Below, in pieces: positions 1 through 63,900 of a stretch of DNA of 64,000 nucleotides. The stretch is taken from NCBI GenBank assembly GCA_036785375.1, contig JAWMAR010002012.1, positions 62,001 through 126,000 on the forward strand, written 5' to 3'. The stretch is from Leucoraja ocellata (taxonomy: Eukaryota). Position numbers: made by a program. The stretch's first letter is position 1. Each line of letters opens with the position of its first letter.

Positions 1-3000
1 ACTCCATGTATAGGGGATAGATAGCAGATTACGAGCGTAGTCCGGCGCAAACGCTAAAACTGTTTGCAGCACCATAATAGTACACCTTTTCCTCTCACGA
101 TCAATCACCATCTTCCACTTTCCTACATTTTAATAACATGCTCCTCACCTGTCGCTTGTAGTGCTATTTTCAGTTCTTTAATTTCTGGAAGAACACATTT
201 GTAGCGTCAGGCGTCGTTCCCAAGCAATTCATTATCTGCATTAATATTACTGAAAAGAACAAGGTCAGGTCAGGTCGTGGAGAGTTCCCATCGCCATGGG
301 TACCATGTAATCCCGTGCTACCATGGTCGGATAATTGGCAATTAAGCCGTCTTCCCCACCTGGTTTGCCAGGTGAGAAGGGGGCTTTGGACGAGATGAGC
401 TCCTAACGAGCCAACGGTCAGCCAAACTTCAGTTGAAATTGCTTCCATTGTTGTACATAGCATTTAAGGCACCGTGCCAGTTGATGTTCTCAACGATGAT
501 GATGATGAGAACGACAGCATTTTGAAAGAGAAATTACGGTTATAAACCTAAAGATACCATAAACCAAATACAGTAGTATTGTATATTGCAGTTAATTTAA
601 GAATGGTGGAGTATGAAGTAGGATAATACTACGGTTGTTATGGGGGATTTGAACGTGCAGGTAGACTGGGGAAATCAGGTTGGTACTGGACCCCAAGAAA
701 GGGTGTTTATGGAGAGCGTCCGTGGTGGATTCATATGCCCCTGTCCCACTTAGGAAACCTGAACGGAAACCTCTAGAGACTTTGAGCCCCATCTAAGGTT
801 TCCGTGCGGTTCCCAGAGGTTCCTGGGGGGTTTTGCCAGTCTCCCTAATGGTCGAAAATGGTTTCCGCTTCTTCTATATTCCGGCGATTATTTAAAAAAT
901 TTAAAAACCGGCCACGACTAAAAATAGGTTGCAGTTTTAAAAATCGGTAATTTTTAAGTCGAAGCCGGTTGCGATGCTAGTTGAAGGTGGTTGCCGGAGG
1001 TTGTAGGTAGTGGAAGGTAAGACTTTAACAAGTCTTGGACAACATGGACAGCATCAAAATACTTGCTGTGTAGAGAGGCAGGAACTACAGCTTTGTGGCC
1101 CTGTACGATCATGCCATCTTGTATTACTAGTTCATCACGGATGGCAAAGAAGGGCCGAATTTGGAAGTGGTAGATTGTGTTGCTTGTCAGGCCATCTGCG
1201 CTTAATGACAGAGGAGAGCTATCGTAAGGTATCGTCAGCGGCAGTGTGAGCTACTAGGTCCTCCAAGCAGGACGAGAGAATAAATGAAATCGTTATCTGA
1301 TGTGGAGGAACCATCGCAGGTCGTTTGAGGAGCACGCGATAGGGTGTCAGCCAGGTGCATGTCGTTGCCACCTTTGTAGGCTAGAACAATGTCATACTTC
1401 TGAAGCTGCAGCAACATCCGTTGAAGGCGTCCTGGAAAGGCGTGTATTGGTTTGTTCAAGATGCTGATCAGGGGTTGATCGGTAGTTTCAATCATGAACA
1501 TTTCCCCTATGATCAAGCCATTAAACTTGTTACATACAAAACGACCGCTACCAGCTCCTTTTCAATTTGCCGTAGCGTTGTTCCGTGTCTGTCATGGTGC
1601 GCGAGGCATAGGCAACAGGCCCGTTGCCGTCACCTTAATCTTGGAGGCAAGCTGCTCCTAAACTGTACTGTGAGGCGTCACAAATCAGTGTGACCGGTAA
1701 TTTAGCATTAAAGTAGGCGAGAGTGGGCGCACAATTTTAAGAGAGCAAAAAATACCGATAATGCAAAAATCACGAGGGGTGAAAAGTTATATTGGCAAAG
1801 TGAATTCTTGTTTTACCACGACGAATGCTAAATCATAGTGGCGTAAATAACCGTGGACCATTTTAGGCAAAGCGGTATATGTTATTTTATTGCATAGATT
1901 TGCAGAAATAGGAAATCAAAACAGCGCTCGACCAAACTAGGCGATAATCTCACTGGATCTTTCGAAAATACTTTCAAATCGGACGAAATAACCATCAACC
2001 CAAAATGTTTTACACTTACCTTTATATTTATTGGAAAGGTCTTTGCCTGTACGAAATAATAAGTAGCGAGCTAAGTAAATAATTGATTAAGAAGAACACA
2101 ATGAAGAACACCACGCATATTTCGATCGCAAATTATAATCACTTTCCACAAATAAGTGTCCAGCAAATGGTCATATATTTATGGATCTACCTTACCATGA
2201 GTACAAACAAAAAACATACACCCAAAATTCGCACAAAACATACACCCAAAACCCGCATAAAACATACACCCATACACCCATCGTCGCGAGCCCTCACCGA
2301 TGCCTCCTGGATCGCCGCGTAAAACTCCGGCCGGGGCCTCACAGGTAGAAGCCCAGGTCGGACGAAGCGATCGACGGCACCCGCGACTGAGCTGCACGGA
2401 GGCCGTGAAGTGGGCTCGGCACCACGTTGGCGCCCGCAGACGCAGCTCCAGCCGAGTGCGCACTCCGCTCGTTCAGCTTTATATTCTCGCCGGGCGAGGT
2501 GGGCGCCGCCCGTGAGTGACCGCAGACCAGGCCAATCAGTGCGGTGATGGTGCAGGGAGGGTCTTCGCCGCCCCGGCGACTGACAGGAGAAGAGACAAAT
2601 CTACGTGACGGCGACAGACAGGAGACCAATCTGCGCATGCGCAATTTAAATAGTTTTAAACACGAATAACTTTTAAAATATACCATCGATCGGAACAAAA
2701 CGTATTGCCCTTGTAGCACAGGAGAATGGCGAGTAAGTCTGCAAAACATCGTAGCCCTCTATCCCTTACCGATCTTGCGCAAATAGAAAAAAACCGCAAA
2801 ACCGGAAGAGCACAAATCAGTTTTAGTATAAAAGANNNNNNNNNNNNNNNNNNNNNNNNNNNNNNNNNNNNNNNNNNNNNNNNNNNNNNNNNNNNNNNNN
2901 NNNNNNNNNNNNNNNNNNNNNNNNNNNNNNNNNNNNNNNNNNNNNNNNNNNNNNNNNNNNNNNNNNNNNNNNNNNNNNNNNNNNNNNNNNNNNNNNNNNN

Positions 3001-60900: not shown

Positions 60901-63900
60901 CAGGGATGCCCTGGCGAGGGACCCCGCTCCAGATGGTAAGTCCCCGCCGCGTCCGCGGTAGAAGTAGGCCGCGGGCCCGCGGTCGGAGCTTCTTCTTCTC
61001 CCGGGTACCCAACGGGATCCCAGGTTGCGGACGCCGCCAGCTGCAGCTCCGCAGACCGCGGCTTCAGACTGCCGCGGGCCAGCGAACGGAGCGCTCCCCT
61101 CCGGCGCCCCCGGCGAGTGCTCGCCTGCTCCACGCCGAGAGTCCACGTTGCGCCCGCCGGTGAAGCCCGGGCGCGTGTCCGGGAAAGGCCGCACTGATCC
61201 TCGATGTTAGGCCACGAAGGAGGCGACACGGAAAAAGTCGTGGAGGAGGCGACCGAAACGGTTTCCCCCTCACCCCCCCCCCCCCCCCCATACCAACCCC
61301 CACACAAGACACACAGAAATACACCAAAAACACACATTAGGACACACAAATTTTTTTTTAAAGTAGAAAAAACTAACACGCTGCTGGCAATTTGTTTTGT
61401 GTGGGCTTGCATGCGTCCCCCCACCGACCTGTATAGGAGTATAGGAGGAAATAGGTTGTTCTGCAGTTGTACAGGGCCTTAGTGAGACCACACCTAGAGT
61501 ATTGTGTGCAGTTTTGGTCTCCAAATTTGAGGAAGCGCATGCTTGCTATTTAGGGAGTATGCGTATGTTTACAGGATTAATTCGCGGGATGGCGGGACTG
61601 TCATATCCTGAGAGAATGGAGCGGCTGGGTTTGTATACTCTGGAATTTAAAAGAATGAGAGGGGATCTTATTGAAACATATAAGATTATTAAGGGTTTGG
61701 ACAGTGGGGAAGTGATACAATCTTAATCTGAGAAATATGGGTAAGACGGCTGCAAGTCGAAATAATAAATAAAGAGCAACCACTATCAATCAAGGGGTAA
61801 GATGATCTAATATTGAGGAACATTGGCACAAAATTCCCTCCTTCAACAGATAATATTTTCAATTAAATAATGTTCTTCAATGTGCATTCCCTTATAAATA
61901 AATCGTGTGGAATTAAATGTTAATGGAATGGGAATGGGACATGTTCAGTAACAATGTCGCTTTTCAAATCGCAATTTTGATTGTTAAGCATAGTAAGGTT
62001 ATTTCTCTCGACAAAATAAAAATCGCTATATACAATTTACCCGTGTCTTTCGTTCGCAGGCTCTCGTCTATAAGTATAATGATACGTTATCCGATAGTGC
62101 ATGGTCAATGCCTGCACCAAAACATTGGATTTGCATTTACCTTTTAGCTGACTCGAGGTGCATGAAATCCTTTCAAATATCGACTGCCCTGTTATAGAAT
62201 TTTTCTGTTAATGATATTTCTAAATCTTTGACCGTATTATTGTATTGGCTAAGCGGCACACCAGCAGAAAGTTCCACTAATTTTCACGTCACATTCCAGT
62301 TTCCTTAACTACTTAACTGAGCTGACAAGTTAACCGTCATCGTCAAAATGCACCCCCACCCCCCCCCCCCCCCCCTTCAAACTGAACCTGCTATGTAATT
62401 AACTAAATTTGTGGCTGACTTGATTTTAACTGAATTCCACTCAACATTCCGATCAATGAGCGGCAAATTGCACCTGTCATTCAGAAAATATGGTTTCATC
62501 ATTTTCGGCTATAAACCTAGATGCAAAATGCGCCGAGGAAATTGAATTCATAAGATCGTGATAGTAGCAGAACTAGGCTATACTGCCCATCATCTACTCG
62601 CCATTCATTCATGGCTGATCTATCTCTGCATCCGAACCCCATTCTCCTGCCTTCTCCTCATAACATCTGACACCCGTACTAATGTTAAATCTATCTATTT
62701 CTGCCTTAAACATATCCACAGCCTTCTGTTGCAAAGAATTCTACAGATTCACCACCCTCTCACTAAATAAATTCCTCCACAATACCTTTCTAAAATAATG
62801 TCATTTAATTCAGAATATATGACCTCTCGTCCTAGACTCTCCCACTAGTGGAAACATCCTCTCAACATCCATTCTATCCAAGCCTTTCAATATTCTGTAA
62901 GATTAACCGAGGTCTCCGTCATTCTTGTAATCTCCTGCGAGTGCAGGCCCAGTGCCGTCAAACGCTCTTCATACTCACTCATTCTTATAAACCTCCTATA
63001 GACCATGTCCAGCGTCAGCACATCCTTCCCCAGATACAATGCCAATGATTACTCACAATATTCCCCATGCAGCCTGACTAGCGCCTCGTGGAGCCTCAGC
63101 TTTGCATTCCTATTTTTGTATACCAGTCCACTAAAAATATATGCTAGCATTTCGTTTCTTTTCTTTATTACCGTTTCGACTTGTAGATTAACTTTTTGGA
63201 AATCCTGCACCAGCACTCGCAAGTCCATTTGCACCTATGATTTCTGGATTCTCTCCCCATTTAGAAAATGATCTACGCCTTTATTCCAACTACCAAAATA
63301 TTTGACTTCACTATTTGCTACACTATATTCCATCTGCCACTTCTCTGCCCACTCTCTCATTCAATTCAAGTCTTTCTGCATAATCCCTGCTGTCTCTGCA
63401 CTATCTTCCCCTCCACCTATTTTTGTATCATCCGCAAACTTTCCCACAAAGCCTTCACTACCATCAACCAAACCAACAATATACAACGCGAAGAGCAGCG
63501 CCCCCAACCGCGAGCCCTGGGAGACTCCGCTAGTCTCTGGCAGCCAACCAGAAAGAGCCCCCTTTATTACCACTCTTTGCCTTGTATCACCCAACCAATC
63601 TGATATCCGTATTGATTCACCGTTACTTAACCATGAGTTACTTGTCGACAATAGAAACATAGAAGCATAGAAAAATACGTGCAGGAATAGGCCATTCGGC
63701 CCTTCGAGCCATTCAATATGATTATGGCTGATCATCTAAAATCTATACCCCGTTCCTGCTTTTTCCCCATATCCCTTAATTCCTGTGGGTCCAAGAGCGA
63801 AATCGAACTATCTCTTGAAATTAATCTCTGAATATTAACATATTTCCACGTATCATGCTGTATAATCTTTAACAATTCGATTGTCGCATGTTTTCTCGTG

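Follow-up and report, generated by a model that had tools for sequence, protein, structure and literature searches.

In the window (the whole 64,000-nt stretch of Leucoraja ocellata DNA that was analysed), 35 minus-strand segments can be chosen that are AG/GT-bounded, divisible by 3 in length, end in G and are open in phase 1: 19 of 27 nt, 14 of 36 nt, one of 24 nt and one of 48 nt (Table 1). They extend from 149 to 62188 and sum to 1089 nt, or 363 codons, equal to 1.70% of the window. This rebuilt set matches in every number the initial annotation, which had described 35 minus-strand phase 1-1 segments of 24, 27, 36 and 48 nt, encoding ~360 amino acids in ~1.7% of the window. Self-blastn across 3.9-33.5 kb finds direct repeats 0.3-2.1 kb long at 67-89% identity. 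They form a young tandem array whose units run in the order 36-nt exon, intron of 0.5-1.9 kb, 27-nt exon, intron of 2.2-2.8 kb. The 27+36 exon code proposed earlier is the alternating pair of the array, and its 63 nt correspond to 21 residues, or three heptads.

Both assembly gaps fall in predicted introns, the smallest exon-gap distance being 61 nt (51497 vs 51435). The reading frame, on which the initial annotation carried a caution, is unaffected by them and independent of their content, as phase 1-1 symmetry holds for all the exons.

Table 1 Predicted exons, candidate exons, array and assembly gaps
Feature	Tier	Position	Strand	Remarks
48-nt candidate exon	C	62141..62188	-	AG/GT-bounded, phase 1 open; no family resemblance, no in-frame ATG
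27-nt exon	A	62041..62067	-	out-of-sample family score 10.6 vs plus-strand best 2.7; donor gtaaat
36-nt candidate exon	B	59909..59944	-	family score -1.5 vs null best -3.3; hydrophobic-x-x-L-K pattern; 2096 nt below 62041
27-nt candidate exon	C	57847..57873	-	bare criteria only
27-nt candidate exon	B	53793..53819	-	leave-one-out -5.7; splice sites tattgcag / gtaaat
27-nt candidate exon	B	53656..53682	-	leave-one-out -1.1; 110-nt intron between it and 53793
36-nt candidate exon	B	51497..51532	-	leave-one-out -12.5; donor side 61 nt from N gap
Assembly gap, 464 N, in predicted intron		2836..3299		nearest predicted exon edge 646 nt off
Assembly gap, 262 N, in predicted intron		51174..51435		CT/AG-rich simple repeat adjoins at 51083-51173
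27-nt exon	A	50781..50807	-	leave-one-out 8.1 vs null best 2.7
24-nt candidate exon	C	48725..48748	-	good consensus splice sites; composition unlike family
27-nt exon, older subtype	A	47605..47631	-	21/27 nt, 7/8 residues shared with 34628-34654
36-nt exon, older copy	A	45737..45772	-	27/36 nt shared with 33100-33135; leave-one-out 20.3
27-nt candidate exon	B	42450..42476	-	leave-one-out -1.0; good splice scores
36-nt candidate exon	B	39581..39616	-	leave-one-out 0.2
Young tandem array		3945..34654	-	about 9 units of ~3.5 kb
27-nt exon, older subtype	A	34628..34654	-	pairs with 47605-47631
36-nt exon, array copy	A	33100..33135	-	nucleotide similarity incl. flanks
27-nt exon, array copy	A	31190..31216	-	nucleotide similarity incl. 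flanks
36-nt exon, array copy	A	30257..30292	-	nucleotide similarity incl. flanks
27-nt exon, array copy	A	27535..27561	-	nucleotide similarity incl. flanks
36-nt exon, array copy	A	26976..27011	-	nucleotide similarity incl. flanks
27-nt exon, array copy	A	25976..26002	-	nucleotide similarity incl. flanks
36-nt exon, array copy	A	23441..23476	-	donor gttcgc vs gtcagg/gtcagt in 8 sister copies
27-nt exon, array copy	A	22497..22523	-	next exon also 27 nt, 36-nt exon absent between
27-nt exon, array copy	A	20035..20061	-	nucleotide similarity incl. flanks
36-nt exon, array copy	A	17783..17818	-	nucleotide similarity incl. flanks
27-nt exon, array copy	A	16546..16572	-	nucleotide similarity incl. 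flanks
36-nt exon, array copy	A	13714..13749	-	nucleotide similarity incl. flanks
27-nt exon, array copy	A	12815..12841	-	nucleotide similarity incl. flanks
36-nt exon, array copy	A	10571..10606	-	nucleotide similarity incl. flanks
27-nt exon, array copy	A	9903..9929	-	nucleotide similarity incl. flanks
36-nt exon, array copy	A	8378..8413	-	nucleotide similarity incl. flanks
27-nt exon, array copy	A, by flank homology	7466..7492	-	leave-one-out residue score only -1.2
36-nt exon, array copy	A	4713..4748	-	library entry P0002: read-through ORF with 95% identity to 4543-4800
27-nt exon, array copy	A	3945..3971	-	nucleotide similarity incl. flanks
27-nt candidate exon	C	2020..2046	-	strong consensus donor; no family resemblance
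36-nt exon, divergent copy	A	149..184	-	leave-one-out 9.3 vs null best -3.3; last exon before window end

Segment support relative to chance

The bare criteria alone have no specificity against chance. The minus strand has 180 stop-free segments of AG + 24/27/36/48 nt + GT with a final G, the plus strand has 86, and 30 first-order shuffles give 116±13; a crude splice-site score gives 36 minus-strand vs 33 plus-strand candidates. We graded segments as tier A (paralogous array copy or high family-matrix score), tier B (score at null level) or tier C (bare criteria only), with matrix scoring done leave-one-out or out-of-sample. Nineteen of the 35 are paralogous copies, recovered by nucleotide similarity including flanks with the coding filter not applied; searches with exon plus 80-nt flanks return 10 loci of the 36-nt class and 12 of the 27-nt class, which alternate and are confined to the minus strand. 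The six tier A exons that are not array copies have family-matrix scores of 8.1 to 20.3, where the best plus-strand null is 2.7 for 27 nt (120 candidates) and -3.3 for 36 nt (113 candidates). The six tier B segments lie at null level (-12.5 to 0.2), and the four of tier C satisfy the bare criteria and nothing more.

The tally is 25 segments supported by paralogy or family score, six weak and four at chance level; the last ten are indistinguishable from chance candidates. That all segments are simply AG..GT-bounded open stretches drawn from A-rich sequence would fit the counts from shuffles and the plus strand, and ten of the 35 sit at that level. As an account of the whole set this is scarcely credible, since 25 segments are mutually homologous or far above all plus-strand candidates and the exons alternate regularly on a single strand. 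A chance origin of these 25 is ruled out by paralogy, family scores and the retention of splice sites and length relative to introns; for the other ten it is possible. The initial reading of one gene of modular microexons has partial support, from the sequence itself for the 25: the 19 array copies keep AG/GT, length and an open phase 1, older exons outlast their introns, and 27 + 36 nt amount to three heptads.

Retention of splice sites, length and frame

AG and GT are retained in 19/19 array copies (38/38 dinucleotides), and the exon alignments of these copies, 36 or 27 columns wide, contain 0 gap columns. Across the introns of these nine units, by comparison, adjacent column pairs are invariant in 33/1257 cases, and windows ungapped in all copies number 9/1265 at 27 columns and 0/1256 at 36 columns. 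Phase 1 is open in 31/31 core exons, with stops in phase 0 in 16/31 and in phase 2 in 8/31, and young copies carry 0 nonsense changes vs about 3.8 expected under a star tree (P about 0.023). Across the whole unit, two independent unit alignments place the top-conserved 30-column window at the 3′ portion of the 36-nt exon together with its donor (scores of 0.846 and 0.845 vs unit means of 0.545 and 0.507).

Outside the young copies, the exons 47605-47631 and 34628-34654 differ by four synonymous and one nonsynonymous codon changes, while their 200-nt flanks align with scores of 12 and 12 (shuffled nulls 10±2 and 7±2). Of the flanks of 45737-45772 and 33100-33135, the upstream one is random and the downstream one weakly similar. 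In such older copies, the exon is kept though the introns have diverged past alignment.

Among young copies, dN/dS is about 1.4 (36-nt class) and 1.08 (27-nt class); with values about 1, purifying selection on residues is not visible. The exons, with nucleotide identities of 0.812 and 0.663, do not stand out from flank windows, among which these values rank at the 78th and 13th percentiles. Both observations would suit a partly dead array, in which amplification multiplied one or a few ancestral 27+36 pairs of a real gene along with their introns and only some copies are still spliced, the rest drifting neutrally as pseudo-exons within long introns. So would the altered donor of one copy (gttcgc, in a class with C at +3), the Gly or Pro in several copies, and a unit that keeps its upstream intron block and has lost its 36-nt exon. 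Because of this last unit, decay in the array is a fact; as a description of the locus, however, we find a partly dead array unlikely, given that both splice dinucleotides, the exact length and an open phase 1 persist in 19/19 copies, a combination hardly ever seen in intron windows, and given the low probability of seeing no nonsense change.

A non-coding repeat, be it a macrosatellite or part of a host transcript that is itself non-coding and whose short exons flank functional intronic elements (e.g., small RNAs), would accommodate the tandem units, the intron blocks that are as conserved as exons (window scores up to 0.842-0.854) and a 19-nt block ~100 nt upstream of 36-nt exons (9 matches vs 0.02 expected). 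We regard it as very improbable: it would not explain the exact 27/36 nt, the single open phase, the Glu/Asp junctions or the heptad pattern, differences between older copies are mostly synonymous, and searches of the window returned 0 Rfam matches at gathering score and 0 tRNAs with ARAGORN.

We consider it probable, on sequence grounds, that the window covers 62 kb or more of the interior of one minus-strand protein-coding gene, whose coding sequence here would consist of symmetric phase-1 microexons only. The predicted gene extends beyond both window ends, and the evidence supports the expectation that ORF-based annotation would miss it. The sequence itself shows the repeat anatomy, the kept splice dinucleotides, lengths and frame, and the periodicity; the splicing together of the exons, the coiled-coil product, and the ends and function of the protein are what we infer.

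The encoded repeat

Over the whole codons of 29 exons (271 residues), the composition is E 14.4%, K 14.4%, L 12.5%, T 10.3%, Q 8.9% and R 7.0%; C, F and W are absent and P occurs twice. Each exon's last base is G and, in 30/31 core exons, the following exon begins with A, so that the junction codon is GAN at nearly every junction (Glu or Asp in 27/28). Large hydrophobic residues occupy unit position 2 in 12/13 exons, 5 in 13/13, 9 in 9/13 and 16 in 13/16. A second hydrophobic stripe is weak, with Thr at position 12 and Lys or Asn at position 19, and the remainder is mostly charged or Gln. The 27-nt class (whole-codon positions 14-21, 16 exons) contains nine Gly and two Pro, and one junction codon also encodes Gly.

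Of the hydrophobicity power, 62.5% lies in heptad harmonics, a share reached by 447/20000 column shuffles; period-3.5 power alone is matched by 1220/10000 shuffles and is not significant. The unit pattern reads as an amphipathic alpha-helix in which one hydrophobic stripe is good and the other partly polar. Because of this pattern in the 21-residue unit, the product is most likely rod-shaped, long and helical; it is probably a two-stranded coiled coil whose core is weak. Of the E/K/L/Q-rich helical repeat described initially, the composition is confirmed, and the helical part rests on the periodicity analysis rather than a predictor.

Two homology searches, each with only ~12 informative residues, found no spliced relative. 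A word search with a read-through stretch gave two candidates, neither of which scored; when 1.84 billion representatives were searched with a profile, the hits were limited to a bacterial coiled-coil repeat protein and a read-through ORF.

Known systems and growth of the array

Schistosome micro-exon genes likewise have coding sequence made almost entirely of symmetric multiple-of-three microexons that annotation pipelines easily overlook, but their products are short, secreted and devoid of heptad periodicity, they are not built on a duplicated exon pair, and the lineage is unrelated. Fibrillar collagens (54-nt exons), nebulin and titin PEVK share the tie of exon length to structural period and the duplication of exon-intron units, with other periods and folds and larger exons.

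Chicken BG genes (butyrophilin-related, MHC-linked), as described in PMC5938342 and PMC4046983, assemble their long tails from 27-37 exons of 21 nt, tiny and symmetric, in each of which the first codon is divided one base + two; hydrophobic a/d positions are read across exon borders, exon number varies by duplication, and tail variation is not simply purifying. In mammalian butyrophilins, including BTN3A, a number of very short "heptad" exons that can be skipped in frame lie between the transmembrane domain and B30.2, according to PMC6790196. The window could therefore hold the cytoplasmic tail of a BG/butyrophilin-family (B7-related) membrane protein, with signal, Ig and TM exons upstream and B30.2 or a stop downstream. 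The exon logic is alike, BG's 1+2 split being phase 1, and 35/35 segments here are phase 1-1; such symmetry is, however, common among exon-shuffled modules and not diagnostic. A BG exon has 21 nt, in a few cases 18 or 24, and encodes one heptad, whereas here a 36+27 pair encodes three, introns are 0.5-4.9 kb long and the entire ~3.5-kb unit is repeated. A butyrophilin gene has only a few exons of this kind, with B30.2 next, in contrast to the 25-35 exons here. Pfam searches of 94 ORFs of at least 76 residues on both strands of the window gave no Ig, TM or B30.2 match, and a hydrophobic ORF at 53868-54119, inspected by eye, has neither a phase-1 acceptor nor a start codon. The likeness is one of architecture, and we hold membership of this family to be doubtful.

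For the single microexon gene that we favour, the building block would be the 36-nt + 27-nt exon pair, encoding a 21-residue, three-heptad module. Unequal crossing-over probably expanded the array in genomic units of ~3.5 kb, each an exon pair with its introns, with about nine young units at 3.9-34.7 kb and older, more scattered pairs upstream to 62 kb. Gain, loss or skipping of units would leave the frame intact, because all exons are multiples of three in the same phase, and whole-pair changes would also preserve the heptad register. That register is broken where the 27-nt exons 22497-22523 and 20035-20061 adjoin.

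Reconstruction and grading of the candidate microexon segments

We rebuilt the segments of the initial annotation, which had described a hidden minus-strand gene made of 35 microexons, by scanning the window for AG followed by 24, 27, 36 or 48 nt and then GT, with G as the final exon base and phase 1 free of stops. This rule yielded 180 segments on the minus strand and 86 on the plus strand, against 116±13 in 30 first-order shuffles; such criteria alone prove nothing, and chance satisfies them more than 100 times in a window of this kind. Nucleotide self-comparison resolved ~3.9-33.5 kb as a field of direct repeats of 0.3-2.1 kb that are 67-89% identical, and searches with exons plus their 80-nt flanks recovered ten 36-nt-class and twelve 27-nt-class loci, which alternate and lie on the minus strand only. 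A position-specific residue matrix built from both exon classes, applied to minus- and plus-strand candidates, added the 27-nt exon at 62041-62067 (10.6, where the 120 plus-strand candidates reach 2.7 at most) and left the 36-nt candidate at 59909-59944 marginal (-1.5, against -3.3 for the best of 113 plus-strand candidates). A crude splice-site matrix based on consensus frequencies returned 36 candidates on the minus strand and 33 on the plus strand, and was dropped as evidence.

The assembled set comes to exactly 35 segments, 19 with a length of 27 nt, 14 with 36 nt and one each with 24 and 48 nt. They amount to 1089 nt or 363 codons, cover 1.70% of the window and span 149 to 62188, and they include four segments satisfying the bare criteria alone. 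Because the figures for count, size and span agree, this set is very probably the list behind the initial annotation. We graded it into three tiers of falling support (A to C), in which leave-one-out or out-of-sample scoring places the six tier A exons outside the young tandem array at 8.1 to 20.3. The pattern as first described is real for 25 of the 35 segments, by paralogy or by family score, and unproven for the other ten, which do no better than chance candidates.

Two assembly gaps had raised the question of whether the sequence is continuous and in frame across them. Both N runs of the window fall within predicted introns and no predicted exon touches either: the 262-N gap begins 61 nt below the donor of 51497-51532 and lies 366 nt above 50781-50807, and the 464-N gap sits between 3945-3971 and the pair 2020-2046 and 149-184. 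Since all exons are phase 1-1, the frame across the gaps is independent of their content.

Positions of exon candidates, repeated elements and other features in the window
Feature	Position	Strand	Remark
Tier A exons (n = 25)	19 array paralogues; 62041-62067, 50781-50807, 47605-47631, 45737-45772, 34628-34654, 149-184	minus	
Tier B candidate exons (n = 6)	59909-59944, 53793-53819, 53656-53682, 51497-51532, 42450-42476, 39581-39616	minus	matrix scores -12.5 to 0.2, not above null
Tier C segments (n = 4)	62141-62188, 57847-57873, 48725-48748, 2020-2046	minus	splice-like borders only
19-nt intron block copies	8519-8537, 10711-10729, 13854-13872, 17919-17937, 23577-23595, 25146-25164, 27108-27126, 30382-30400, 33240-33258	minus	
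RVT_1 fragment	17331-17753	plus	Pfam, inside predicted intron
RVT_1 fragment	23857-24366	plus	Pfam, inside predicted intron
RVT_1 fragment	27802-28488	minus	Pfam, inside predicted intron
RVT_1 fragment	55814-56642	minus	Pfam, inside predicted intron
RVT_1 fragment	63364-63735	minus	Pfam, inside predicted intron
G+C/CpG-rich patches	2201-2700, 10101-10600, 15201-15700, 28101-28700, 54701-55200, 56301-56800, 60601-61500		composition
(TTA)25 simple repeat	18915-18990		
20-mer x7, alternatively perfect 64-mer x2.3	41894-42041		
21-mer x5.7	56466-56584		inside retroelement
C-rich low-complexity tract	10308-10510		
Assembly gap (N run)	2836-3299		
Assembly gap (N run)	51174-51435		

Anatomy of the young array and possible constraint on its copies

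The young array, in which tandem units of ~3.5 kb each carry a 36-nt and a 27-nt exon, runs from 33135 down to 3945 and contains nine 36-nt and ten 27-nt exons. Introns that follow a 36-nt exon and lead to a 27-nt exon measure 523-1883 nt, and those that follow a 27-nt exon and lead to a 36-nt exon measure 897-2796 nt. Acceptors of the 36-nt class are pyrimidine-rich and end in ttag, and seven of their donors read gtcagg, the other two being gtcagt and gttcgc; acceptors of the 27-nt class end in [at]acag and their donors are of the gtaaat type. Two 27-nt exons, 22497-22523 and 20035-20061, are consecutive without an intervening 36-nt exon, a juxtaposition that preserves the frame and would shift the three-heptad register.

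All 38 splice dinucleotides in the 19 array copies are intact and none of the copies carries an exon indel. A global alignment of the introns from these nine units, which is rough and probably overstates gaps, shows invariance at only 33 of 1257 pairs of adjacent columns; its windows free of gaps in all copies number 9 of 1265 at 27 columns and 0 of 1256 at 36 columns. Alignments of the 150-nt flanks agree with this result, each flank set having 29-38 gap runs. None of the 31 core exons (tiers A and B) has a stop in phase 1, and stops occur in phase 0 in 16 of them and in phase 2 in 8. A star-tree estimate predicts ~3.8 nonsense changes among the young copies, where none is seen (P ~0.023), and in two separate unit alignments the most conserved 30-column window takes in the donor of the 36-nt exon together with the 3′ part of that exon. 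Among the older, diverged copies, 47605-47631 and 34628-34654 share 21 of 27 nt and 7 of 8 residues, with codon differences that are synonymous in four cases and nonsynonymous in one, and the alignment of their flanks exceeds that of shuffled sequence little or not at all.

We consider it probable that these copies belong to a genuine and probably unannotated coding region, in which a tandemly amplified pair of 36- and 27-nt microexons encodes a 21-residue helical module. The main rival, a partly dead array, appears unlikely to us; a recently amplified and partly unused array would nonetheless come close to giving the same pattern of constraint. Counting against constraint are dN/dS values among the young copies of ~1.4 for the 36-nt class and 1.08 for the 27-nt class, the loss of the exon behind one retained upstream block (25146-25164), and mean exon identities of 0.812 and 0.663, which are unremarkable because they rank at the 78th and 13th percentiles when set among flank windows. 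The idea that 27-nt exons evolve faster than intron was set aside as not significant at the 13th percentile. Our reading is that selection here acts to keep the splice sites, the exon length and the frame, and not the identity of individual residues, which is the pattern expected for a repetitive helical spacer.

A 19-nt intron block about 100 nt upstream of the 36-nt exons is conserved to the same degree as the exons, with nine matches at no more than 3 mismatches against 0.02 expected, and contains a donor-like GGTAAT. We rejected this block as a third coding exon, as the stretch ahead of it opens with an in-frame phase-1 stop and differs in length from copy to copy; the block may act in splicing control, or be a non-coding or poison exon. 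In a dead unit at ~24900-25200 on the minus strand the block and the acceptor pyrimidine tract of the 36-nt class are kept, but the AG is lost together with the exon and the sequence beyond is unrelated; this unit adjoins the plus-strand reverse-transcriptase fragment at 23857-24366.

The predicted module and the search for relatives

We analyzed residues per exon class and per junction codon, numbering the unit so that the junction codon is position 1, the 36-nt exon encodes positions 2-12, the next junction is position 13 and the 27-nt exon encodes positions 14-21. A large hydrophobic residue is found at position 2 in 12 of 13 exons, at position 5 in all 13, at position 9 in 9 of 13 and at position 16 in 13 of 16, and Thr stands at position 12 in 10 of 13 exons and Lys or Asn at position 19 in 11 of 16. 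The first exon base is A in 30 of the 31 core exons (32 of 35 overall) and the last is always G, so that nearly every junction codon is GAN and encodes Glu or Asp (14 Glu, 13 Asp and one Gly among 28 junctions). GAN junction codons extend to the divergent upstream candidates as well.

When the unit is folded on the heptad, each of the three heptads is hydrophobic in the a register, but only the first is so in the d register (+3 residues). Heptad harmonics account for 62.5% of the hydrophobicity power, a value reached by 447 of 20000 column shuffles (p ~0.02), and the period of 3.5 by itself falls short of significance (1220 of 10000 shuffles do as well, p ~0.12). The harmonic power and the register pattern support a predicted amphipathic helix with heptad phasing, and a stable two-stranded coiled coil is plausible; several 27-nt copies carry Gly or Pro.

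A search of longer proteins with a 43-residue contiguous read-through around exon 10571-10606 returned two word-sharing candidates, neither of which scored. We also built a profile from 11 contiguous read-through translations of 36-nt-class exons, which obtained two matches among 1.84 billion representatives. The first (P0001, a bacterial protein of 2327 residues) was rejected as a relative, given that its repeated coiled-coil segment matches by composition. The second (P0002), the sole trace of the array in the library, is a read-through ORF of 86 residues with 95% identity to 4543-4800 on the minus strand, a stretch comprising one array exon and flanking intron; its presence indicates that sequencing elsewhere has covered a closely similar locus, where a naive ORF was called, and it carries no information on splicing. 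Because the queries held only ~12 informative residues, the otherwise blank result is weak evidence of absence.

Comparison with BG and butyrophilin genes and other content of the window

The 25 supported exons are of 27 or 36 nt and all phase 1-1, with heptad-phased hydrophobic positions, and in this they share the small-exon feature of the chicken MHC-linked BG genes and of butyrophilins (BTN). Butyrophilins have a B30.2 (PRY-SPRY) exon at the 3′ end and BG genes do not; here the final exon identified terminates at base 149, leaving 148 bases downstream in the window. Pfam searches of the 94 ORFs of at least 76 residues on both strands gave six reverse-transcriptase matches at five places and three further sub-threshold matches, taken as chance, and no host domain at curated score, including Ig V-set or C-set families or B30.2. 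In this family, signal peptide and IgV (and IgC) exons come at the 5′ end; their absence from the window decides nothing, because the gene seems to extend past 62188. A sub-threshold match to Lep_receptor_Ig at 27512-27952 (19.8 bits, cut-off 28.8) adjoins a reverse-transcriptase fragment. The sole hydrophobic minus-strand ORF near the first small exons, 53868-54119, lies just upstream of 53819 and ends in phase 1 at a gtaaat donor; we rejected it as a transmembrane (TM) exon, the type that immediately precedes the small exons in BG/BTN genes, having found by eye neither a phase-1 acceptor nor an ATG.

According to published descriptions, the cytoplasmic tail of chicken BG derives from 27-37 exons, which are 21 nt long apart from a few of 18 or 24 nt; every exon opens with a codon that combines one base from the preceding exon with two of its own, and hydrophobic a and d residues cross exon borders, with variation that appears selected (PMC5938342, PMC4046983). 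Mammalian BTN3A has a few skippable ‘heptad’ exons between TM and B30.2 (PMC6790196). Chicken BG and the present array have in common phase 1-1, tiny heptad-phased exons and a variable exon number, whereas the module is 36 + 27 nt for three heptads here and a 21-nt exon in BG, intron sizes differ, and the duplicated genomic unit is visible in the present array. A literature search, with most subscription journals beyond reach, found no description of such an array outside birds and mammals.

Within the coding readings, membership in the BG/BTN family is possible but of low probability. The most far-reaching version, which we regard as a long shot, is an unannotated vertebrate gene for a helical rod written in a two-exon code (36 + 27 nt giving three heptads, with an acidic residue per junction), its pair amplified at least nine times by 3.5-kb tandem duplication, and kin to the lineage behind the BG/butyrophilin heptad exons; in that case, encoding a coiled-coil tail in microexons would be an ancient and evolvable way of setting tail length, and no bird peculiarity. 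If spliced as modelled, the array would be a second, independent-looking case, after chicken BG, of a long helical rod built from symmetric microexons by the dozen, with a module unlike that of BG (an exon pair makes three heptads) and with duplication units still visible in the introns. Simple unequal crossing-over could then alter protein length while keeping both the reading frame and the structural register, and the locus would exemplify a gene missed by ORF-based and many homology-based annotators. Should the array prove to be joined with Ig and TM exons, it would inform how the BG/butyrophilin tail arose.

Over its 64,000 bases the window has a G+C content of 41.9% and a CpG observed/expected ratio of 0.79, a mild CpG depletion. 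Rfam and ARAGORN tRNA scans of the window gave no match. Two of the five RVT_1 retroelement places score above the curated cut-off and the others below it, and all are short ORF pieces. Several patches stand out from the 42% G+C of the window by their G+C content (0.56-0.71) and CpG observed/expected ratio (0.69-1.2); that at 60.6-61.5 kb holds a 290-codon minus-strand ORF without a Pfam match. Because at least two of the patches adjoin reverse-transcriptase fragments, they are more likely pieces of repeats than promoters.
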